A DNA stretch of 37,789 bases, taken from positions 1 through 37,789 of the forward strand of contig JBIOKB010000004.1 in NCBI GenBank assembly GCA_044451405.1, read 5' to 3'. The DNA is from Candidatus Babeliales bacterium (GTDB lineage: Bacteria > Babelota > Babeliae > Babelales > Vermiphilaceae). Under the pieces are notes generated by a model. That model searched no databases. It saw only the letters and a list, made by a program, of their open reading frames with translations, and was not told the DNA's origin. Positions 4,015 to 34,833 of this stretch are shown here, one piece after another (position 1 is the stretch's first letter; the number at the start of each line of letters is the position of its first letter). A program made the translations under genes and the position numbers.

Positions 4015-4074
4015 CAGCCAGACGTAGCTTAACACTGCCTGAGGTTTAACTTCGATAGAAAGAGCGGAGACTGG
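4015..4074 (+). repeat. Family-1 modular palindromic element, cargo B
   Basis: ccagacGTAgctt-aacactgcctgaggtttaacttcgatagaaa-gagcGGAgactgg; near-identical to the reverse complement of 31286-31346. Confidence 0.9.
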
Positions 4075-8294: not shown

Positions 8295-8346
8295 TCCAGC
8301 CTACGCTTATCCGGGTTGTCAGACTCGGCAAGCTACGGCGGACAAG
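8295..8346 (-). repeat. Family-1 modular element, cargo A
   Basis: Reverse complement tgtccgccGTAgctt-gccgagtctgacaacccggat-aagcGTAggctgga. Confidence 0.9.
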
Positions 8347-11327: not shown

Positions 11328-12869
11328 TTAGCTGTGAGCTAATGCTAATGACGGTGGAGGTGTTTGTGCTTTTCTCTTCTGTTCAGTCTGCTCAACCCCA
11401 TCTTTTTCCAGTGCACTAGATGGACGTTGCTGCGTAAGAGCAGATAGAGCCCCAAGCGAGTCCTGCCCAGTGGGACGTAATACTGGTGATGACAATGGTG
11501 CTACTGCTGGAGTGCTGCCTTTTCTTTTCCACCATCTTTGTTTTTCTTGTGCTGATTGTGGTCTTTGAACAGCTGCTGATGCACCTGCTCCGCCAACTGG
11601 TGCTGATTGAGGTGATGAAGCAACAAGCGGTTTGGTTCTTAACAACTGAAGCAATTGCTCTTCTCCTCTTTTAATTTTTTGTACTAATTGAAGAATCTCT
11701 TGTTGTTGTGATTGTAATTTGGTTGTTATCTCTTTCATATGCTCTTTATTCTGTTGCAGATCGTGAACATTATCAGTGATTGTTGCAAGATTGCCCGTTG
11801 CTTGTTGAGTAAATTCTATAATTTTCTTTTTTAATTCCTCTTCCTGTTCAGCTACCGTTTTAAGTGTAAGCTCTAACTGTTGACGATTTACCTGTTCAGC
11901 GCGTGCTAATTGTTCATTAATTGTTTTGTGAATAGCAGCGTGTGTTTGTTTAAGTTCAAGATGGATAGCCTCTGATTGTTGTTGCGTTACTATGATCGCT
12001 TCGCCCATTTGCCTTTTATGACTAATTAATTCTTTTCTAAGATCGTCCGTCTCTTTTTTATACGGATCAGCGACCCACTGCTTAAACTTATACCACAGAA
12101 CACCAATGCCAATGAGCGCGATTACTGGGCCGATTACTGCTTTGAGCGCAGTGAGTAATGCAGGGCCTTCAAGGCCCGTAAATTTTTTATCACCGCAGCA
12201 TTCTTTATAGATGCGAAATGGATTAATCTTTGCAGCCCACGCTAGTGCTCCTGCCGCACCTCCGAGAGCAGCTGCGGCAACTAGGCGTGGATTAACAGAG
12301 CCTGCCTGCTGACTGGTTGTATTGATATATTCGAGCGCTTTTTTTTCATGCTCGGTGAGGTCATTTTCATTTTTTAGAAGTTGCCGGCTTAATTTTTCAA
12401 GCTTTGCAATAGACTGCTCTATTTCTGTAATTTCTCCTTCAAATTCAGGTGTCGGCATTATAGGGTTCACCGGTTGTGTATTAACAGCGCTCAGATCAAG
12501 GTTTCCAATACCAATGCCACTATCATGCGTTTGTAGTGGCGTAGGGCGTCCTCTTTTGCCCTTGGGAGAACGATTTTTTACCGGGGTGTTAAAAGGTGTT
12601 TTGGCAGCAAGCACCAGTTGTGCTGCACCTGCGGTAGCATCATCATCATCGGATTTTCTTTTATGCTCTGCCTGATGTTTCCCATGAATATGATCTCCTA
12701 ACACGGTAAGTTCTACTTTGAGTGGCTCTAATGCAGGATTTCCTGATTCGCGGATAGTAAGAACAACCTGCTCAGGTGTTAAAGGTGGAGTTTTATCATC
12801 CATGCCATATATAGTGAAAGAAGTGAGCATTAGAAGAGTAGATAGGGGGTAACGGTGACTCATGTTCAT
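11328..12869 (-). CDS. Exported protein with two hydrophobic segments and a long coiled coil
   Basis: 513 aa ORF, AAGGA RBS, signal peptide, Q/E/K heptads, disordered S/P-rich ends. Confidence 0.85.
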   Translation of the reverse strand: MNMSHRYPLSTLLMLTSFTIYGMDDKTPPLTPEQVVLTIRESGNPALEPLKVELTVLGDHIHGKHQAEHKRKSDDDDATAGAAQLVLAAKTPFNTPVKNRSPKGKRGRPTPLQTHDSGIGIGNLDLSAVNTQPVNPIMPTPEFEGEITEIEQSIAKLEKLSRQLLKNENDLTEHEKKALEYINTTSQQAGSVNPRLVAAAALGGAAGALAWAAKINPFRIYKECCGDKKFTGLEGPALLTALKAVIGPVIALIGIGVLWYKFKQWVADPYKKETDDLRKELISHKRQMGEAIIVTQQQSEAIHLELKQTHAAIHKTINEQLARAEQVNRQQLELTLKTVAEQEEELKKKIIEFTQQATGNLATITDNVHDLQQNKEHMKEITTKLQSQQQEILQLVQKIKRGEEQLLQLLRTKPLVASSPQSAPVGGAGASAAVQRPQSAQEKQRWWKRKGSTPAVAPLSSPVLRPTGQDSLGALSALTQQRPSSALEKDGVEQTEQKRKAQTPPPSLALAHS

Positions 12870-14548: not shown

Positions 14549-15256
14549 ATGAACATGAAAATGTCGGCGGTAGTAATTACCTCAGCATTAGTTGGCATGC
14601 CAGTACAAGCGATGGATATTCTTGTAAAAGCGGCGAAAGATAATCCAGTAATAGCAGCAGTAGGTGCAGTTGCACTCTTAGGCGGCGCTGGTGCAGCTGC
14701 TGTAAGAGTTAATCAAGCTCAGCCTGTTGCAGTGGATGTAGAGCAAATACCAGAACCATATACTCCAAGAAGTTGGAAGCAAGTAAAAAAATTACAAGCT
14801 AAGAAAAGACAGATTGCTACAGACGCACAGCGTTCAGAGTCAACTATTGATGGGGAAATTGAAGCAATTGAAAAAACAAAATCAGCTGAAGCAAAGCAAA
14901 AGGCAGAAGAGGCAGAAAAGACAAGAAGAGCTCGTTCAGAAGAAGCTGAATTAGCAGCATTAGACAGAGAATTAAAAGATATAAAGAATAGTATGAACAG
15001 TCTTGAAGGGAAGAGAATATTTGTAGCTGCGTATAGAAGAGCTAGAGCAGAAGCACAGAGCTCATCAGCTGCCCCAGCACCATCATCAGCATTAGTACCT
15101 GCTATACCAGCATATTCATCTCCTGTAGCACCAGCTCAAACTGCCACTCCTGCTCCATTTAGAGTTCCTGCACCATCAGGAGAAGTGGTTGCCGTTCGTG
15201 TGGACGCAATCGAAAGAACAGAAGGAAAAAGAGAAGCAGTAGAACAAAAAGCATAA
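14549..15256 (+). CDS. Signal peptide + TM + coiled-coil hypothetical protein
   Basis: AGGAG RBS; A/P-rich tail. Confidence 0.85.
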   Translation: MNMKMSAVVITSALVGMPVQAMDILVKAAKDNPVIAAVGAVALLGGAGAAAVRVNQAQPVAVDVEQIPEPYTPRSWKQVKKLQAKKRQIATDAQRSESTIDGEIEAIEKTKSAEAKQKAEEAEKTRRARSEEAELAALDRELKDIKNSMNSLEGKRIFVAAYRRARAEAQSSSAAPAPSSALVPAIPAYSSPVAPAQTATPAPFRVPAPSGEVVAVRVDAIERTEGKREAVEQKA

Positions 15257-16507: not shown

Positions 16508-17773
16508 ATGAAAAAAATAATAATCACATCATTGGTATGTATGCATGTATTAGCAACACCAGCGCTGCACGCATGGCAGTTGCCTAAACAACTTGATGGA
16601 AAACAACTGGGAATTATTGCGGCAGTTACGGCAGTAGTTTTAAGTCTTGTGGGAATTGCTTTGTATAAGCAGGCAAGGAAGGCGCACGTTGGAGCAGTTC
16701 AGCAGCCGGGTGATGGTAGGATAACAGTACAATTTACAAATGAGCAATGGGAAGAAGGCCGTCGTATTTCTAAAGAACAACAAAAGGCCGAGTTACAACA
16801 AGCATTATCTACACATCAAGAAAATTGTGTTCGTATCCTTCGACAAGATCAGGACGAACGGATTAATGAATTACGCCAAGAATTTGCGGCTAAACAAGCG
16901 CATGAAGATAGAGCCGGTGTTGCAGCAGTTCCACAACAACCAGAACAAGAAGATTCCCAAGGTCAAGCCATAGGTCTGCTGTTAAGAAATTATCTGCAGG
17001 TGAAAGAAGAAAATCAGAGTATGTGTAAAGCTATGGTAGACTTGGCAAAACGAATAGAAGGACAAGAAGGAGACGTAGCATTTGTGGCTAGTCAAATAAG
17101 TGGAGCGCTGGAAACGTTAAATAAAAATGAAAAAGTTATTACTAATCTTGGTACTACAGTTGAACATCACAGAAGTCTTATGATGGGTGAATCGATCACT
17201 TTTGGCAAACTGATGCAAAGAGTGACTGCTTGTGAAAAACTGTTGCAACATATTCAAGAACAGACGGGTATAAAAGCAGAGAATGAGGGTTGGATTAAGC
17301 TTAATACCGCTGAGAAAGAAGCGTTACAAGAAGGAACACAGGCGCGACAACTTCGAGCTGCTGTGCAAGTAAAAGAAGTACAAGGCGCTGGTTCAGGTCA
17401 ATTATCAACCGTAGAGCAGCAACGTTTAGAACGAGCACAAAAAATGAAAGAAGGGCAAGCTATTCGAGCTCAAATACGGCAACAACGAGAAGCACAACAG
17501 ACAAAGCCACTTGAACATACACCAACACCCTCTGAGCTTGGGGTTTCATCGCCATGCGTAGGGAACGAGCATCCACTTTTTGCCCCGAGCGCTTCTGTTG
17601 AAGAACAGCCTGCAGATTGCGCACTACCACCAGTAGCTGAAGGTGATGAAACGAGAAAAGAGTCTTTGGGCACACTTCAAGTACATCAAATGTTTGTTGA
17701 TGGACACATGAAGACAGCTCATAAGGAAGAGTTGCAAGAACTTCTTGCTGCAGAAGAAACTGCGACTTATTAA
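16508..17773 (+). CDS. Signal peptide + TM + coiled-coil hypothetical protein containing an in-frame repeat
   Basis: AAGGA RBS; Q/E-rich. Confidence 0.85.
   Translation: MKKIIITSLVCMHVLATPALHAWQLPKQLDGKQLGIIAAVTAVVLSLVGIALYKQARKAHVGAVQQPGDGRITVQFTNEQWEEGRRISKEQQKAELQQALSTHQENCVRILRQDQDERINELRQEFAAKQAHEDRAGVAAVPQQPEQEDSQGQAIGLLLRNYLQVKEENQSMCKAMVDLAKRIEGQEGDVAFVASQISGALETLNKNEKVITNLGTTVEHHRSLMMGESITFGKLMQRVTACEKLLQHIQEQTGIKAENEGWIKLNTAEKEALQEGTQARQLRAAVQVKEVQGAGSGQLSTVEQQRLERAQKMKEGQAIRAQIRQQREAQQTKPLEHTPTPSELGVSSPCVGNEHPLFAPSASVEEQPADCALPPVAEGDETRKESLGTLQVHQMFVDGHMKTAHKEELQELLAAEETATY
16829..16861 (-). repeat. Family-2 palindromic element inside a CDS
   Basis: Reverse complement ccgttcgtcctgatcttgtcgaaggatacgaac; encodes VRILRQDQDER. 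Confidence 0.9.
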
Positions 17774-19017: not shown

Positions 19018-19078
19018 CAGCCCGGCGTAGTTTAAAGCTTCCTCGGGTTTTTCTTCGATAGTAAAAACGTAGAGGGGC
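19018..19078 (+). repeat. Family-1 modular element, cargo B variant
   Basis: cagcccggcGTAgttt...cttcgatagt...aaacGTAgagggg. Confidence 0.8.
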
Positions 19079-20666: not shown

Positions 20667-21638
20667 TTACTCATAAATGAGATCGTACATGTGTGTTCCT
20701 GCATGGCCGCGAATACCAAGCGGATAACTTAAGGTGATGGTATCCACATCAAATTGTTTTGGTATGGGTGGGAATAATCCGGCTTTGTACACAGCGTTTA
20801 ATAATGAACGTTCAATTTGTATGATATCAAGTGTTTTTTTCGGATGCTGCAATTCTGCAGAAACTAATTTTCCTACTTTATCGATAGTAAGTACAAATAC
20901 TGCGTGGGTATGAATATCATCTAATAACTGGGTTGGTGATTTATAGGCGTTATATGATTGACGTAGGAGTGACCAGACTCGGGTCCCGTACCGCTGGCGC
21001 GCTAATTGTTCTGCATTTAATGATGTTGGTTTGCCACCACTTTCTTGCGCCATGCTTTTTAAAAACCCTTTGGCGATGTCGGCCATGGTGATATTGCCGA
21101 TGCCGGAGGATGCACGCTCCTGCTGCGCAGGAGTTGTTTCTGTAACCGTTCGATATGGTTCGTCAGGCTCACCACGAACGGATTTATTATTTTCTGCGGT
21201 GAGAATTTTTTCTTCTTCGAGTGTTCTTGTTTTATTTTTTTCGATTGATTCTATTTCCCGTTCGTCCTGAGCTTGACGAAGGATACGAACGGCGTCTTGG
21301 GACACACTTTCATCAACTACTTCTTCTTTTTTTTGAGCATCTTCCGCCTTCGCATACGGATCAAACGGTGCGTCAGCAGTGGCACTCACCGGCTCATTGC
21401 TTACGCTCGCTCCCATTTCCTGCAGTGTAGGCTCATCATAAAATATTACCGTCGCATCCTCACTTTCCATCGGGCTTTGGGCAAGGATATTTGCCAGCTC
21501 ATCAAGGTGGCGAGAGGAATTAAAGGGATTTTCTCCCGTGATAGCAATAAACATAAGAATTAAGAGAAGGAGGTGGATGAGTAAGGAACCGCTTATAATA
21601 AGCGCTTTTTTACGCGAAGATAATGCGGTATAATCCAT
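20667..21638 (-). CDS. TonB/TolA C-terminal-like membrane-anchored protein
   Basis: SLLIHLLLL anchor, charged linker, LTIDKVGKL...FPPIP domain; likely start MDYTA. Confidence 0.75.
   Translation of the reverse strand: MDYTALSSRKKALIISGSLLIHLLLLILMFIAITGENPFNSSRHLDELANILAQSPMESEDATVIFYDEPTLQEMGASVSNEPVSATADAPFDPYAKAEDAQKKEEVVDESVSQDAVRILRQAQDEREIESIEKNKTRTLEEEKILTAENNKSVRGEPDEPYRTVTETTPAQQERASSGIGNITMADIAKGFLKSMAQESGGKPTSLNAEQLARQRYGTRVWSLLRQSYNAYKSPTQLLDDIHTHAVFVLTIDKVGKLVSAELQHPKKTLDIIQIERSLLNAVYKAGLFPPIPKQFDVDTITLSYPLGIRGHAGTHMYDLIYE
21146..21181 (-). repeat. Family-2 element inside a CDS
   Basis: Reverse complement ccgttcgtggtgagcctgacgaaccatatcgaacgg; encodes SVRGEPDEPYRT. Confidence 0.88.
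21258..21292 (+). repeat. Family-2 element inside a CDS
   Basis: ccgttcgtcctgagcttgacgaaggatacgaacgg; encodes VRILRQAQDER on the minus strand. Confidence 0.9.
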
Positions 21639-21692
21639 TACAAGTCCTATTTTTAATCCTGATATCTTACTGACAATAAAAAAGATAATCAA

Positions 21693-22322
21693 ATGAGCGT
21701 TATAATACCATCAACCCCACTTTCACGTGACTTTTATGCCCGAGATACAGTAACCGTAGCCCAAGATTTATTGGGTAAAGTACTCGTGCGTGAAGTTGAT
21801 GGTGTCCTACTTGCGGGCATTATCGTAGAAACGGAAGCCTATCGATCAGATGATGCTGCATGTCATGCATACAAGGGGCAAACCCCACGTACGGCACCGT
21901 TGTTTGGTCCGGTGGGTTATACGTACGTCTATTTTATTTATGGAACTCATTTTTGTGTAAACTTTGTATCGCGTGATGCATCAGTAGCTGCCGGCGGGGT
22001 ACTTATTCGAGCACTTGAGCCGATTGCAGGTATTGCGTATATGCAACAACGGCGCGGCGTATCTGGGCACACACATCTTACCAACGGACCGGGAAAGCTT
22101 ACAAAAGCGCTCGCAATTACGCGTGATCAGATTGGTATTGATGCAACTCAACTTGGCTCATTGTATGTGGGAGAAGGCAGAAGCTATAGCGCATCTGATA
22201 TTGTTGCAACGCCGCGAATTGGTATTTCACAAGCACAAGATCTTTTATGGCGATTTTTAGTGAAGGGTAATGGCGTCAGCCCGGCGAAGCCTAATGATGC
22301 TTCAACGTTATTCTCTAAATAG
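21693..22322 (+). CDS. mpg: DNA-3-methyladenine glycosylase (MPG/AAG family)
   Basis: IVETEAY, YVYFIYG, VLIRALEP, TNGPGKL, TPRIGI. Confidence 0.95.
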   Translation: MSVIIPSTPLSRDFYARDTVTVAQDLLGKVLVREVDGVLLAGIIVETEAYRSDDAACHAYKGQTPRTAPLFGPVGYTYVYFIYGTHFCVNFVSRDASVAAGGVLIRALEPIAGIAYMQQRRGVSGHTHLTNGPGKLTKALAITRDQIGIDATQLGSLYVGEGRSYSASDIVATPRIGISQAQDLLWRFLVKGNGVSPAKPNDASTLFSK

Positions 22323-22351
22323 TGCGCCTATGCGCACCAGGCGAAGAGGGG
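22277..22351 (+). repeat. Family-1 element with nested family-3 hairpin (22320-22339)
   Basis: cagcccggcGAAgcct...tagtgcgcctatgcgcacc-aggcGAAgagggg. Confidence 0.8.
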
Positions 22352-23351: not shown

Positions 23352-23388
23352 GACTATTTATAGTAGCAGATTGGCGGTAAATACAAAA

Positions 23389-23408
23389 TAGCGCGCCTCA
23401 GCGCACAA
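23389..23408 (+). repeat. Family-3 mini-hairpin
   Basis: tagcgcgc-ctca-gcgcacaa. Confidence 0.55.
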
Positions 23409-23497
23409 GGGGAAATAACTGATTTCTTTATTTTTATGTGTGTATCTGTCCATAGTAAGAACGTACGATTATTAACTTTATTACCAAGGAGTAGTGT

Positions 23498-28193: not shown

Positions 28194-28572
28194 AGCAAAA
28201 AAAGTATCGCGTGAATTTGCTACGGTACACAAAGAACTTTTAAAACGTAAACTAGAACTTGAACAAGAGATGCAAGCATTAAATAGTCAAAAGTTCTCTG
28301 ATGATCAAGTGCAAGATGTGGGGGATCAAGCGCTTACGTCAACCATGGATAGCCTCACCAGTTCCATACAAAATACCAAAATTGATGAATATAAACGGAT
28401 TGTGCGTGCCCTTGAAATGATAGAAGAAGGAACGTACGGCGTATGTGTTGATTGTGGTAATCCTATTTCTGAAAAGCGGTTAAAATCATTCCCGAATGCT
28501 ACTCGGTGTTTGTTGTGCCAAGAGGCGTATGAAGATGGCATACCGGCTCGAGTGCCTGAGAGTGAGATTTAA
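28186..28572 (+). CDS. dksA: DksA/TraR C4 zinc-finger protein
   Basis: DVGDQA (DxxDxA), YGVCVDCG...RL...CLLC; GTG start. Confidence 0.85.
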   Translation: MGEAKKVSREFATVHKELLKRKLELEQEMQALNSQKFSDDQVQDVGDQALTSTMDSLTSSIQNTKIDEYKRIVRALEMIEEGTYGVCVDCGNPISEKRLKSFPNATRCLLCQEAYEDGIPARVPESEI

Positions 28573-28583
28573 GACTGTGGCGC

Positions 28584-28651
28584 CAGCCAGGCGAAGTTTG
28601 CCGAGCTTGAAAGCCCGGATAAGCAAAGTAGTGCGCTTTAGCGCACCAGAC

Positions 28652-28654: not shown

Positions 28655-28727
<73 letters not shown>

Positions 28728-31285: not shown

Positions 31286-31346
31286 CCCAATACTTCGCTC
31301 TTGCTATCGAAGTAAGACCTCAGGCAGTGTTAAGCTACGCCGGGCA
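31286..31346 (-). repeat. Family-1 modular element, cargo B
   Basis: Reverse complement tgcccggcGTAgctt-aacactgcctgaggtcttacttcgatagcaa-gagcGAAgtattggg. Confidence 0.9.
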
Positions 31347-32190: not shown

Positions 32191-33315
32191 TTAACCTTTG
32201 ATGCGCAAAGCGAAGGTAATTATATAGTATAGTGCCGCAGTAGCTACCGGAGCGAGTGCAGCATACATAGCAGTTGCACGAGTGATATCAGCGGCATTTT
32301 TGGTGATCTTTACATTAGTAAAAGTATAATTAGCTATAAGAGCTGTCAGTATATTGTTTGGTAGTGAAACAAATATACGTTTTTGCTCTTGAGTTAAGGT
32401 CAATGCGTCACTAGATTGTTTTTTTACGGCATCTTCTTGTGATGCATATAACCAAGCTAAAAATTTCAGCTGTTCTTCAGAGAGTTCTTCAAATTGTGCT
32501 CGTGTTGCATCATCTACCTTAAAGATGGTGCCTCTGTTGGTATAGTGTAACGCATTAAATTCTTTAGGTTTAATATCAAGTTGGTTTCGCTCAGAGACTA
32601 GGTGAGGAAAATACTCGTTGTGTCCTTGAATTAAACGGGATCCTAAATGGCCCCGTTCTAATATAACACGGCTATCAGCCTGCACATAAAGGCGTGGATC
32701 ACTGGCATCAGGTAATAGTCCATGCGCATTTGTCGCGAGGTCTATTAGAAGATCATTACCTCGTATTTTAACAAGGTCAATACAATCAAAAAGTTTTCTC
32801 TTGGTGGCAAGATAATCTCCATAGGGAAATACTGCAGGGATGATATGCGCTCCACCATGCTGCATCATTAATCGCTTTTTGCGTATTTCTTCCCCTCCGC
32901 CAACAAGCTTCCAAATAAGTCTATGAATATCAGCGGGTAACGATGCTGCTGCTGCATACGTCGTTTCTAAAGAAAATGGGAGTTGTGTGCAACTGAGCAC
33001 TATGACGTTTATACTTTCTTGTACTGCTTTTTCACGTTCTAATTTTTGCGCTTGCTTTTCAGGTTTTTGATCTTCTTCTTTCCATCGTTGCCATCGTTCA
33101 TCGGCAGAGCGTGAGTCTCTCACTGTTGGTATTATTACATCGTCATTATCATCAGCTTTTGCTGTTATTATTAAAGCTGCTACAGCATCTGTTTTTTCGA
33201 GTGCAATTGCACAAAAAAGATCTTCTTGAACCTTGGCTTTACGCTCCTCTTCACTGGCATACAGACCAGAAGTGAGGGTTAGTAGGGCTACCCCTCGTAT
33301 TACTATAGCTTTCAT
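32191..33315 (-). CDS. Exported chimeric paralogue of the ankyrin genes with C-terminal TM
   Basis: Shares LLTLTSGLYASEEERKAK; GGAGG RBS before ATG 33315. Confidence 0.85.
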   Translation of the reverse strand: MKAIVIRGVALLTLTSGLYASEEERKAKVQEDLFCAIALEKTDAVAALIITAKADDNDDVIIPTVRDSRSADERWQRWKEEDQKPEKQAQKLEREKAVQESINVIVLSCTQLPFSLETTYAAAASLPADIHRLIWKLVGGGEEIRKKRLMMQHGGAHIIPAVFPYGDYLATKRKLFDCIDLVKIRGNDLLIDLATNAHGLLPDASDPRLYVQADSRVILERGHLGSRLIQGHNEYFPHLVSERNQLDIKPKEFNALHYTNRGTIFKVDDATRAQFEELSEEQLKFLAWLYASQEDAVKKQSSDALTLTQEQKRIFVSLPNNILTALIANYTFTNVKITKNAADITRATAMYAALAPVATAALYYIITFALRIKG

Positions 33316-33950
33316 AAAATCCTCCATACTAAATTATCGTTTTTATCTTGCTCGCGAACCATGCAAAACCCAGAAGACTTTTTAAATACCCATTTAATAT
33401 TTTGATCTTCAAATATCGCATGAAGTTTTGCTTTATCTGCTCCATGCCTTCCGCAGAAATAATCAGCTACAATGCTAGCTACATCTAAAGAAAACATAGG
33501 AAGAAATTCATATAGAGTGTCTAATTTTTTACGGTGTTCATCTAAAGTAAGAATAGTATCACGCGTAGGAATTCGCGTGTAATCATCACCGGCGTTTTCT
33601 GTTAATTTGATATGCAAAATATCAAGAACAGCACGATTGAACTTATTAGGAATGTTAGGATTTACTCCAAATTCAAGTAATAGCGTAATAATGTTGTGTC
33701 GTTTTTCATTGCGAGTTCTCTCGCCATAACCACCAATTGCGGCATGGAAGAGGGGAGTTTCACCAAATAATGGATCTTGCGTATTAACGTCGGCTTTTGT
33801 TGTTAATAAAGCTTCTATTTCATCTGTCTTTTCGCGTATAATTGCATGCATAAATTCTTGTTGAATCTTAGCTTTACGCTCCTCTTCACTGGCAGAGAGG
33901 CCAGAGGCGAGGGTTGCTAATCCAAGAATTAATGGTAATAATTTTTTCAT
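33312..33950 (-). CDS. Exported ankyrin-repeat protein
   Basis: ADVN...GETPLFHAA, LLLEFGVNPN. Confidence 0.9.
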   Translation of the reverse strand: MKKLLPLILGLATLASGLSASEEERKAKIQQEFMHAIIREKTDEIEALLTTKADVNTQDPLFGETPLFHAAIGGYGERTRNEKRHNIITLLLEFGVNPNIPNKFNRAVLDILHIKLTENAGDDYTRIPTRDTILTLDEHRKKLDTLYEFLPMFSLDVASIVADYFCGRHGADKAKLHAIFEDQNIKWVFKKSSGFCMVREQDKNDNLVWRIL

Positions 33951-34786
33951 GATAATTCTCCACGTTTACGTAAGTCTTGAATCAGTTCTGTATATTTTTC
34001 ATAGAGAGCTTCAAGTTTTTTCTTATCAGCGCCATGTTTTCCACAGAAATATTCAGCTACAACGCCAACTACATCTAAAGAAAACATGGGAAGTGATGCA
34101 CCTAAAGCATCAAGTGTTTTACGGTGTTTTTGTAATACACGAAGGGCTAGGCACGCGGGAATTTTAAAATTTAAACGATCATCGTCTGATGTAATGAGTG
34201 GCTTACTGTCTAACCTCTCATCTAACGTACGTAAGACAGTATAATCATCTTTAGTGGCTATGTTAGGATTTGCTCCATGTGCAAGAAGTAATTCAACTAC
34301 TTGCGGAGTGGCGGTATTTTTCTGTACAAGCGTGTGAATTGGGGTGTTTCCATTTTTATCTTGCTTATTGATATTGTCACCATGCTTAAGTAATGTACGA
34401 ATACATTTTTCTCTGCTAGTTGCATCATCAATTGATTCACATATGTAATTGAGGCCGCTTCCCCAGTTGTATGTTGCTCGCATACACATACAATCTACAT
34501 CGGCCTTATGAGTAAGTAATAATTCCATTATAGCTGGACTGCCTGCAGCACAACGTAAAGGTGAACGTCCATGAGAAACTGTTTCATTTAGATCGGCTTT
34601 TGCGTCTATTAAAGATTGTATGTGTTCTAATTGTTCTTCTGTTGCTTCGTTTCCATTGCATACAGTTACGGCAGTAATTGCTCTGAAAAACTCTTCTTGA
34701 AGCTTAGCTTTACGCTCTTCTTCACTGGCATAGAGGCCAGAGGTGAGAGTGAGTAGGGCGACCCCTATCGTTACTATGATTTTCAT
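33947..34786 (-). CDS. Exported ankyrin-repeat protein
   Basis: GRSPLRCAA, INKQDKNGNTPIH, LLLAHGANPN; start MKIIV after GGAAGGG. Confidence 0.9.
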   Translation of the reverse strand: MKIIVTIGVALLTLTSGLYASEEERKAKLQEEFFRAITAVTVCNGNEATEEQLEHIQSLIDAKADLNETVSHGRSPLRCAAGSPAIMELLLTHKADVDCMCMRATYNWGSGLNYICESIDDATSREKCIRTLLKHGDNINKQDKNGNTPIHTLVQKNTATPQVVELLLAHGANPNIATKDDYTVLRTLDERLDSKPLITSDDDRLNFKIPACLALRVLQKHRKTLDALGASLPMFSLDVVGVVAEYFCGKHGADKKKLEALYEKYTELIQDLRKRGELS

Positions 34787-34833
34787 AAAACCCTTCCAAT
34801 TTTTAAAAATGGCTAATTTTAGTTGCATTTTTA

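Follow-up and report, generated by a model that had tools for sequence, protein, structure and literature searches.

The locus considered here raises the question of how two short palindromic sequences in opposite orientation came to lie within the coding sequence of a TonB/TolA-like gene of a Candidatus Babeliales bacterium, whether they arrived separately or as a single unit, and what their presence means for the encoded protein. The window, i.e., the whole stretch of 37,789 nucleotides of DNA that was analysed, has a G+C content of 41.5% and a coding density of 89%, and the features within it that are relevant to this question are collected in Table 1. Throughout, F denotes the orientation of the strand carrying the TGAGC...CGAA loop of the palindrome, and R the opposite orientation.

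Table 1. Positions of the palindromic elements, the spacer and the host genes in the window
Feature	Position	Strand	Remarks
Element A	21146-21181	minus	imperfect palindrome, 36 nt; F orientation on the coding strand of the gene
Spacer	21182-21257	minus	76 nt, A+T-rich; encodes EIESIEKNKTRTLEEEKILTAENNK
Element B	21258-21292	plus	imperfect palindrome, 35 nt; F orientation antisense to the gene
Element C	16827-16861	minus	third, solitary copy; outer stem decayed
TonB/TolA-like gene	20667-21638	minus	323 aa; ORF 20667-21692, probable ATG at 21638
Linker-coding DNA	21021-21521	minus	aa 40-206; contains element A, spacer and element B
Element C host gene	16508-17773	plus	421 aa; N-terminal signal or membrane segment; no known family

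The protein hosting elements A and B consists of a membrane helix (aa 8-34), a disordered linker (approximately aa 40-206) and a folded C-terminal domain (aa 207-323), with the AlphaFold model giving a pLDDT below 50 for linker residues 40-206 and of 62-88 per block of ten residues for the C-terminal domain. The best fold matches in the PDB are H. pylori TonB-CTD, HasB-CTD and TolAIII, found with probabilities of 0.87-0.97 but with E-values of only 5e-3 to 9e-2 and TM-scores by target of 0.39-0.63, and the nearest clusters in the Atlas are TonB, with a score of 0.96. Pfam TonB_2 scored 13.3 bits (E 0.09) on this protein, under its cut-off of 22, and NCBIfam gave no match. The label "TonB-like" used in the original prediction can thus be kept only insofar as it refers to the TonB/TolA fold, no curated sequence model passing its cut-off. 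ExbB/ExbD or TolQ/TolR partners were found neither among the 30 window ORFs upstream of position 28572 that were scanned with Pfam, nor among the 27 window ORFs scanned with NCBIfam, which was the sole scan to extend beyond 28572. Sub-threshold NCBIfam matches among the window ORFs include chlamydial CT392 (E 0.002), CT214 (E 0.0014) and ankyrin repeats, from which no conclusion is drawn.

Two inverted palindromes, 76 bp apart and translated in frame, had been predicted within this gene, and they are present at the coordinates listed in Table 1, occupying 147 nt in total together with the sequence between them. The minus-strand gene reads through both without a stop codon, element B giving VRILRQAQDER and element A giving SVRGEPDEPYRT (peptide (S)VRGEPDEPYRT). 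A pattern derived from B matches the reverse complement of A with no mismatches (0 of 100 shuffles match), the inner stem pairs being swapped between TGG..CCA in A and TCC..GGA in B and C; these compensatory changes, also part of the prediction, are real and represent a polymorphism that runs through the whole repeat family described below. The terminal heptamer CCGTTCG occurs seven times in the window against 1.47 occurrences expected, a number reached in 0 of 100 shuffles. Taken singly, the hairpins of A and B are modest when compared with shuffled sequences (-13 to -14 kcal/mol, z about -2), and the G+C content of the elements is 51-58%, compared with 44% for the TonB-like gene.

Element C, too, is in frame, but in a different gene; with respect to the coding strand its orientation and frame are those of B, and its peptide is VRILRQDQDER. 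The protein that hosts it has nothing else in common with the TonB-like protein; an Atlas search with it gave no usable match, and the element peptide is missing from P0010, the only homologue that turned up, which is 42% identical across 60% of the query.

Elements A, B and C are confirmed members of a dispersed hairpin repeat family. A search pattern of 23 nt with 18 fixed bases, built from the three window copies, matched at least 124 loci in the genomes of many phyla (596 Gb, two strands), while approximately 17 chance matches would be expected for this amount of sequence under the assumption of equal base frequencies. The family consensus measures 33 nt. Its 10-bp stem has CCGTTCG/CGAACGG as the outer part and two covarying inner pairs, and its 13-nt loop is nearly invariant, including where the pattern had left positions free. 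Among the 136 distinct matches listed, three of the five free positions were occupied by A in 135, by C in 135 and by A or G in 131, respectively, and the two other free positions complemented the 5' side, with 96-97% Watson-Crick pairing; the inner pairs GG/CC, GC/GC and CC/GG were all common in the same 136 matches, and G-T pairing is also present in family stems.

Further evidence was obtained with a covariance model (R1) built from 32 foreign copies and no window copies, with which the foreign copies themselves score 19-63 bits. Strong matches to the family model in the window correspond exactly to A (37.6 bits, E 8e-10, minus strand), B (36.1 bits, E 2e-9, plus strand) and C (30.0 bits, E 2e-7), the 3' arm having an insert of 3 nt in A and of 2 nt in B; the next distinct site reached 9.4 bits (E 0.68), and neither the family model with filters off nor mismatch scans revealed further copies in the window. 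The three copies represent a local variant of 35-36 nt with a bulge of 2-3 nt in one arm, this insert being absent from all 32 foreign copies of the model, and each of their loops departs from that of the family at a single position. No target-site duplication was seen by eye at A, B or C.

Among the carriers of the hairpin are Alpha-, Beta- and Gammaproteobacteria isolates, Chloroflexota MAGs with complete chromosomes, and further MAGs that bear the labels Nitrospirota, Bacteroidota, Fibrobacteres, Myxococcota and others. Of 91 elements whose placement was determined, 43 fell between genes and 7 on the edge of an ORF, while 18 were located no more than 30 aa from an ORF end and 23 in the interior of crude ORFs; one family copy lies between annotated convergent genes. 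The matches listed form 136 clusters, comprising 70 solitary copies, 49 F-R dimers, 9 R-F pairs and 8 others, so that the common dimer among them is F-R, its loop starts lying 24-73 nt apart. It may be added that, at a coding density of 89%, three intragenic copies out of three in the window are not unusual.

When 1697 crude ORFs, taken from those loci that measure at least 3 kb, were compared all against all with BLASTP, no recurrent neighbour gene emerged, the largest cluster of neighbouring ORFs involving four loci and containing a short-chain dehydrogenase (L055). A RAYT (Y1 HUH transposase) gene was found neither in the window nor as a recurrent neighbour at these loci, and the comparison tied no other transposase to the family. 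With Rfam, the window at gathering thresholds yielded tRNA only, and six family loci searched at E up to 1 yielded only chance microRNA-like matches below thresholds. Full-text literature searches with the element DNA and peptide strings returned unrelated papers at most, topic searches returned REP and Rickettsia work only, and phage records gave no match.

Seven homologues of the TonB-like protein were found (four close and three distant, 40-76% identity). The original prediction had allowed for the possibility that orthologues without the palindromes carry the same peptide; this is not the case, since both element peptides are absent from all seven. The close homologues are 319, 316, 323 and 305 aa long, compared with 323 aa for the window protein, and the linker is hypervariable among the homologues: identity to the closest of them is 144/145 in the C-terminal domain and 77/87 in the N-terminal part, compared with 23/74 in the linker. 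The element peptides and the spacer gave no significant local alignment with the homologue linkers. A frameshift relationship between the window linker and the homologue linkers was also considered and rejected, as tblastn comparisons with the seven homologues in all frames produced matches in the normal frame only.

The reading that we favour, and to which we assign a probability of about 0.8, is that A, B and C are copies of a REP-like dispersed hairpin which were inserted in genes and are read through as passenger peptides. Their arrival by insertion is suggested by the protein comparison, in a region too diverged for good alignment; the 35 nt of B and C do not make up a whole number of codons, so that the palindrome itself cannot be the exact inserted unit, and since the close homologues are not shorter by the 23 aa expected from two insertions, insertion must have been combined with other changes in linker length. 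All three window copies would have landed inside genes and been retained there. Such retention may have been possible because most reading frames of the element contain no stop codon and because the sites appear undemanding, one being the disordered and fast-evolving linker of the TonB/TolA-like protein and the other a fast-evolving protein of no known family. Of the six frames, four are free of stop codons in 31-32 of the 32 full copies, a fifth is free of them in 15, and the sixth is interrupted in every copy. The elements, presumably translated and tolerated in these proteins, would add hydrophilic peptides of 11-12 aa that are probably near-neutral passengers, and for the TonB-like protein the consequence is likely to be small, amounting to two added hydrophilic segments in an unconserved spacer region.

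Family copies in frame are also found in other proteins. LigD (L038) contains an 81-nt dimer at aa 556-583, where it separates the ligase domain from the primase-polymerase domain. Two domains of a molybdopterin oxidoreductase (L058) likewise have a dimer between them, of 78 nt and reading VRGEPVEPRT...STGSGRT, and a ribonucleotide reductase (L019) carries an in-frame copy between its TSCPD domain and a Cys-rich tail.

Whether A and B arrived together is a separate issue. According to the original prediction, a 147-bp doublet was inserted as a whole and became 49 codons; in the terms used here, this would be a single composite REPIN/BIME-like unit made up of an R element, an A+T-rich spacer and an F element, a scenario which we regard as doubtful. 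It would fit the inverted arrangement of the two copies and the fact that the total is exactly 49 codons, with 35 nt and 76 nt separately not being multiples of 3, as well as the G+C content of the spacer, which is 26% compared with 50-52% in the linker DNA on both sides; R-F pairs with a spacer G+C below that of the locus exist elsewhere too (L077, L097, L067 and L111). In addition, the central 49 aa have no significant similarity to any homologue linker, and the 147-nt stretch from A through the spacer to B folds as one long hairpin (-43.2 kcal/mol, z -6.1, 0 of 200 shuffles). An indel of approximately 49 aa in orthologues, the check named in the original prediction, was nevertheless not seen, the close homologues being 305-323 aa long against 323 aa, and A and B are each complete palindromes. 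Element C, which is solitary and in frame, indicates that single elements suffice. The order in the window pair, moreover, is R-F, the loop starts being 109 nt apart, and among the matches listed this arrangement is a minority one, accounting for 9 of 136 clusters against 49 F-R dimers; its loop spacings elsewhere among these matches are scattered from 46 to 169 nt, which argues against the existence of a fixed R-F unit.

The spacer itself also bears on this issue. The second half of its translation, EKILTA, resembles EKIITA in the homologue P0003, a similarity which counts against the composite unit but is marginal (29 of 500 shuffles as good, with 260-327 of 500 for the other homologue linkers). 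The 49-aa segment was found in no other protein of 177-566 aa (5.8 billion; only the window protein itself among 20 candidates) by a protein search that is blind to intergenic copies. What stands of the earlier interpretation is a dispersed palindromic repeat read in frame in the linker, while insertion as a single 147-bp (49-codon) unit is doubtful, given that no homologue is approximately 49 aa shorter and that the dimer arrangement is not the usual one.

It is improbable that the pair is more than a passenger and owes its retention to a role of its own, either as a long mRNA hairpin tuning translation or decay, or as a recombination or slippage hot spot generating linker variability. The folding energy of the 147-nt hairpin in the mRNA (z -6.1) would be in line with the former role and the existence of almost wholly different linkers in alleles whose C-terminal domains are identical at 144/145 positions with the latter, and the invariant loop with its covarying stem argues for recognition of the hairpin by something. 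A long hairpin is, however, the automatic result of having two inverted copies, and the linkers of homologues without the elements vary equally among themselves, which makes this variability independent of the elements. Solitary copies between same-direction genes show no orientation preference with regard to transcription, 6 being sense and 7 antisense; this speaks against a general role in mRNA. No relationship in an alternative frame was found among the linkers.

A gene that is broken or untranslated across the linker, i.e., a pseudogene or two genes between which the elements would be effectively intergenic, is very improbable: the protein as a whole has no family model above cut-off and the family favours intergenic DNA elsewhere, but the gene has 323 codons in one unbroken frame, its architecture and similar length recur in the seven homologues, and domains on either side of the linker are conserved. 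Hardly credible is a protein-level or chance resemblance, in which two proteins would have a short charged motif in common and the palindromy of the DNA would be incidental, for although B and C give near-identical peptides in two proteins, A is the same DNA element reversed and gives an unrelated peptide, the DNA fits a sequence and structure model from other phyla with E-values of 1e-7 to 1e-9, the majority of family copies are intergenic, and the two host proteins are otherwise unlike.

With insertion of REP-like hairpin copies as the preferred explanation, several known systems can be compared with this one. Rickettsia palindromic elements (RPE) are likewise dispersed palindromic repeats that occur in frame in varied host proteins, with close relatives lacking the insert. 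RPE-1-type elements are approximately 100-150 bp long and are not known outside Rickettsia, of which the gene content of the window and its G+C content of 41.5% show no apparent trace. The window elements appear to differ in that they measure 35-36 nt and belong to a multi-phylum, mostly intergenic family; as with RPE, the copies in the window are in frame in unrelated proteins, and their peptides are absent from homologues. In-frame RPE in protein-coding genes add a peptide without destroying the protein. The comparison draws in part on statements in Di Nocera et al. 2013 (PMC3733652).

Passages of the same paper (PMC3733652) report that intragenic REP dimers encode 20-30 aa, and their authors suggest that intragenic REPs may sit in flexible linkers or loops. 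REP, BIME and REPIN sequences, the GTAG- and CGTC-tagged REP super-families included, appear to resemble the present family, as seen in other genomes, in being dispersed hairpins of 20-40 nt with frequent inverted dimers and G-T stem pairs, and in being located mainly between convergent or same-direction genes, with occasional intragenic copies. CGTC REP families are described with 8-9-bp stems and 4-5-nt loops by Di Nocera et al. (PMC3733652), in contrast with the 10-bp stem and near-invariant 13-nt loop observed here. Another difference from REP and REPIN sequences is that the family starts with CCGTTCG and ends with CGAACGG, without a GTAG or CGTC tag.

Miniature inverted-repeat elements (MITEs) are also small, non-autonomous-looking repeats with inverted termini. 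Some MITEs are read in frame in genes as well. The present element differs from them in that it consists of one short hairpin, with no core flanked by terminal repeats, and in having no target-site duplication visible by eye. We know of no parent insertion sequence for the hairpin family. The kind of event seen in the window, whether RPE-like or intragenic-REP-like, is therefore already known, while the repeat family involved is apparently one with no Rfam or literature match.

Tentatively, a broader reading may be proposed, in which the hairpin family serves as a donor of linkers across phyla far beyond Rickettsia, has a near-invariant loop acted upon by a conserved protein on one strand, and is apparently undescribed. 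Recognition of one strand by a conserved protein is suggested by the combination of a near-invariant 13-nt loop with a covarying stem, and the spread across phyla would be a consequence either of horizontal transfer or of an ancient shared host factor. The length of 11 codons and the mostly stop-free frames would, in such a case, lead to repeated conversion of the element into inter-domain linker.

In conclusion, the window offers a clean example from outside Rickettsia of a hairpin repeat apparently becoming protein sequence in a disordered linker, and it ties this event to repeats that are unusually widespread among taxa and whose loop is conserved to an unusual degree. Should the family prove to be undescribed, the invariant loop would be a handle on the protein responsible for binding or moving repeats of this kind, and translated copies would explain recurrent short motifs in hypothetical proteins and inter-domain linkers; recognition of the family would help in annotating genomes and in removing spurious ORFs, and hypervariable linkers could be used for timing insertions between close strains. 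If the cross-phylum reading is true, this hairpin would act generally as a source of peptide segments, well outside Rickettsia.

Two oppositely oriented imperfect palindromes, elements A and B, lie 76 nt apart in the gene for a TonB/TolA-like protein and span 147 nt together with the spacer, which confirms the positions and gap given for them in the original prediction. The pattern derived from B fits the reverse complement of A with 0 mismatches (0/100 shuffles match), and the swapped inner stem pairs that had been proposed were found, TGG/CCA in A and TCC/GGA in B. Both are also read in frame as predicted, B as VRILRQAQDER and A as (S)VRGEPDEPYRT. Folding of either element singly brings a modest gain over shuffled sequence (z about -2); the 147-nt stretch folds as a single long hairpin (-43.2 kcal/mol, z -6.1) because it holds two inverted copies. 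The third copy, element C, matches B in both orientation and frame with respect to the coding strand and is read as VRILRQDQDER; a family-model search with filters off found no other copies in the window. The family-model alignment gives A, B and C each an insert of 2-3 nt, identically placed in one arm, and they therefore form a local subfamily.

Coordinates of the repeat elements and their host genes (L numbers denote loci of other genomes, in their own coordinates; F, orientation with the TGAGC...CGAA loop strand; R, opposite orientation)
Feature	Position	Host or strand	Description
Element A	21146-21181 (36 nt)	inside minus-strand ORF 20667-21692	imperfect palindrome
Element B	21258-21292 (35 nt)	inside minus-strand ORF 20667-21692	imperfect palindrome
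Element C	16827-16861	within another gene (16508-17773, plus strand)	third copy of the family
TonB/TolA-like gene	20667-21692 (ORF)	minus strand	probable start ATG at 21638; 323 aa
Dimer in L038	2943-3023	919-aa LigD	81-nt F-R dimer, residues 556-583, reading VRPEPVEGR...STSSART
Dimer in L058	3001-3078	1080-aa molybdopterin oxidoreductase	78-nt dimer between its two domains, reading VRGEPVEPRT...STGSGRT
Copy in L019	2990-3023	ribonucleotide reductase	between TSCPD domain and Cys-rich tail

The host protein gave a sub-threshold match to Pfam TonB_2 (residues 217-302, E 0.09) and none in NCBIfam, it adjoins TonB clusters in the Atlas (score 0.96), and the top PDB fold matches, H. pylori TonB-CTD, HasB-CTD and TolAIII, reach probabilities of 0.87-0.97 but E values of only 5e-3 to 9e-2. 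Given the sub-threshold domain match and these modest E values we label it TonB/TolA-like; the models do not appear to assign it to TonB or TolA in particular. No ExbBD or TolQR genes were found among the window ORFs scanned with Pfam and NCBIfam. AlphaFold, supplied with an 8-sequence alignment, predicted a helix at residues 8-34, a region with pLDDT below 50 at residues 40-206, including a low-confidence helix (115-136) that spans the B peptide, and a folded C-terminal domain at 207-323 (block pLDDT 62-88), so that A and B are both predicted to lie within a disordered linker.

The first protein search returned seven homologues of this protein, four close (66-76% identity; 319, 316, 323 and 305 aa) and three distant (40% identity), and all seven lack both the A and the B peptides. 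Identity with the closest homologue, P0002, amounts to 77/87 in the N-terminal part, 23/74 in the linker and 144/145 in the C-terminal domain, which shows the linker to be hypervariable among very close relatives, and nearly all of the linker (DNA 21021-21521) differs from that of P0002. The motifs ELTT... and EE.KP are common to the linkers of the four close homologues and are missing around B in the window allele. Comparison with the homologues ruled out that the linkers are frameshifted versions of one another. Alignment of the element peptides and spacer with each homologue's linker gave nothing significant, the best being spacer against the homologue P0003 (EKILTA/EKIITA), with a score equalled by 29/500 shuffles. 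For the protein hosting C, the sole homologue found (P0010, whose gene shares a 54-kb contig with that of P0002) lacks the C peptide, and that region is poorly conserved too.

It had further been proposed that A, spacer and B were inserted in a single event as one 147-bp unit, which we consider doubtful. Speaking for it, A, spacer and B add up to exactly 49 codons, G+C falls to 26% in the spacer from 50-52% on either flank, and R-F pairs with A+T-rich spacers were found in other genomes. However, none of the seven homologues is shorter by about 49 aa, or even by about 23 aa (the close ones have 305-323 aa against 323 aa), R-F is a minority arrangement without fixed spacing, A and B are each complete palindromes, C is solitary, the spacer is marginally like the P0003 linker, and the 49-aa segment recurs in no other protein of 177-566 aa.

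A pattern of 23 nt, 18 of them fixed, drawn from A, B and C, matched at least 124 loci in a scan of one genome per species, against about 17 expected by chance according to our own arithmetic. Record titles of the matches listed include isolates of Sphingomonas, Altererythrobacter, Porphyrobacter, Methylobacter, Crenothrix, Moraxella and Solimonas, many Burkholderiales, Nitrosomonadales, Methylococcales and Lysobacterales, and complete Chloroflexota/Dehalococcoidia MAG chromosomes; MAGs labelled Nitrospirota, Bacteroidota, Fibrobacteres, Anaeromyxobacter, Thermodesulfobacteriota, Dadabacteria and Binatia are also among them, labels that are possibly wrong. Isolates and closed chromosomes alone already cover at least two phyla. 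In the 136 distinct matches listed, the loop positions left free by the pattern are A (135/136), C (135/136) and A or G (131/136), and complementarity to the 5' side is kept throughout at the two free stem positions (96-97% Watson-Crick), where GG/CC, GC/GC and CC/GG are each frequent, a regularity that chance matches would lack. The 32 full hairpins aligned had been chosen for at least 9/10 pairs, which accounts in part for their 95% pairing; nevertheless, two pairs show changes of both partners, in 9 and 15 sequences respectively, and 0/500 shuffles reached the covariation score observed. A model built from these 32 copies in other genomes scores A, B and C at 37.6, 36.1 and 30.0 bits (foreign copies, 19-63 bits). 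No Rfam family corresponds to the repeat, and its DNA and peptide strings were found in no paper, figures, subscription journals and differently written sequences lying outside the search; the family is apparently, though not provably, undescribed.

Counted by loop motif, the matches listed form 136 clusters: 70 solitary copies, 49 F-R dimers, 9 R-F pairs and 8 tandem or mixed arrays. Loop starts are 24-73 nt apart in 50 of the 51 F-R spacings and 46-169 nt apart in R-F pairs. A Nitrospirales MAG (L057, 890-1402) contains a tandem array of at least four copies, head to tail, repeating every 47 nt, and a Burkholderiales MAG (L011, 2909-3319) one that is dense and mixed. By crude ORF calling in loci of at least 3 kb, 43 of 91 elements are intergenic (23 between same-direction genes, 12 between convergent and 5 between divergent ones, 3 undetermined); an ORF edge is touched by 7, another 18 are no more than 30 aa from an ORF's end, and the remaining 23 lie further inside, many of them in small, probably spurious ORFs of high-G+C sequence. 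Annotated records show copies on Methylobacter, Comamonas, Novosphingobium and Sphingobium megaplasmids, none of them covered by an annotated CDS. One copy is located between convergent genes. Phage records gave no match, and no recurrent protein family was found adjoining the elements. This pattern in the other genomes resembles that described for REPs.

Departures from Watson-Crick pairing lean towards a G-T (G-U) wobble on the F strand (38/60, 39/85, 42/78 and 48/55 at four stem positions), those giving wobble on the opposite strand making up 13/79, 15/79 and 14/59 of such cases, which suggests that one strand is the folding strand. Since solitary copies between same-direction genes have no preferred orientation to transcription (6 sense, 7 antisense), the asymmetry may stem from single-stranded DNA or from plain descent from master copies.

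Small repeat families appear to be plentiful in this genome. Another dispersed repeat, about 53 nt long, has copies at 4017-4069, 19020-19072 and 31293-31345 (two direct and one inverted, 77-89% alike) and no Rfam family at the gathering threshold. All three are located between ORFs: one precedes the class-V aminotransferase (SufS-like) gene, one separates dnaJ from the following ORF, and one follows glmS. Three copies of a short G+C hairpin (GTGCGC, 4 nt, GCGCAC), alike in their flanks, were found: at 22317-22340, between convergent methylpurine-glycosylase and tilS genes, at 23386-23409 and at 28626-28649, the last abutting one copy of a further, 33-nt repeat (8305-8337, 28592-28624), next to a tRNA gene (28655-28727). 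Three adjacent minus-strand ORFs (32191-34828) contain internal direct repeats of 119-138 nt, 67-82% alike, and look like a tandemly duplicated ankyrin-repeat gene cluster; ankyrin-repeat hits to Dot/Icm effector families were obtained for two of them but are weak, every one well short of its cut-off. Sub-threshold NCBIfam matches to the chlamydial inclusion-membrane families CT392 (E 0.002) and CT214 (E 0.0014) were obtained at 14549-15256 and 11328-12869 and hint weakly at the lineage of the source organism.

Across the 32 full copies, stops are absent from four of the six frames in 31-32 copies and from a fifth in 15, while the sixth is never open. In-frame copies between protein domains are also present in unrelated bacteria, in LigD, the molybdopterin oxidoreductase and the ribonucleotide reductase. 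Thirteen large element-bearing ORFs were scanned with Pfam, giving domains in 6/13. The LigD dimer lies between the ligase C-terminal domain (end 545) and the primase-polymerase domain, and VRGEPVEPRT of the oxidoreductase is nearly the A peptide. An M20 peptidase (L059) is a possible further in-frame case; for L055 and L079 a position in untranslated DNA is more likely.

According to Di Nocera et al. 2013 (PMC3733652), REPs occur within genes of several species, dimers encode 20-30 aa, and intragenic REPs are suggested to sit possibly in flexible linkers or loops. The present family differs from the GTAG/CGTC REP classes described there, having no such tag and a loop of 13 nt instead of 4-5 nt. 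The original comparison with Rickettsia palindromic elements holds, A, B and C being dispersed repeat copies in frame in proteins for which the homologues found lack the peptides, the same behaviour as that of intragenic REPs. A, B and C are copies of a REP-like hairpin repeat, carried in frame at sites probably tolerant of extra hydrophilic residues.
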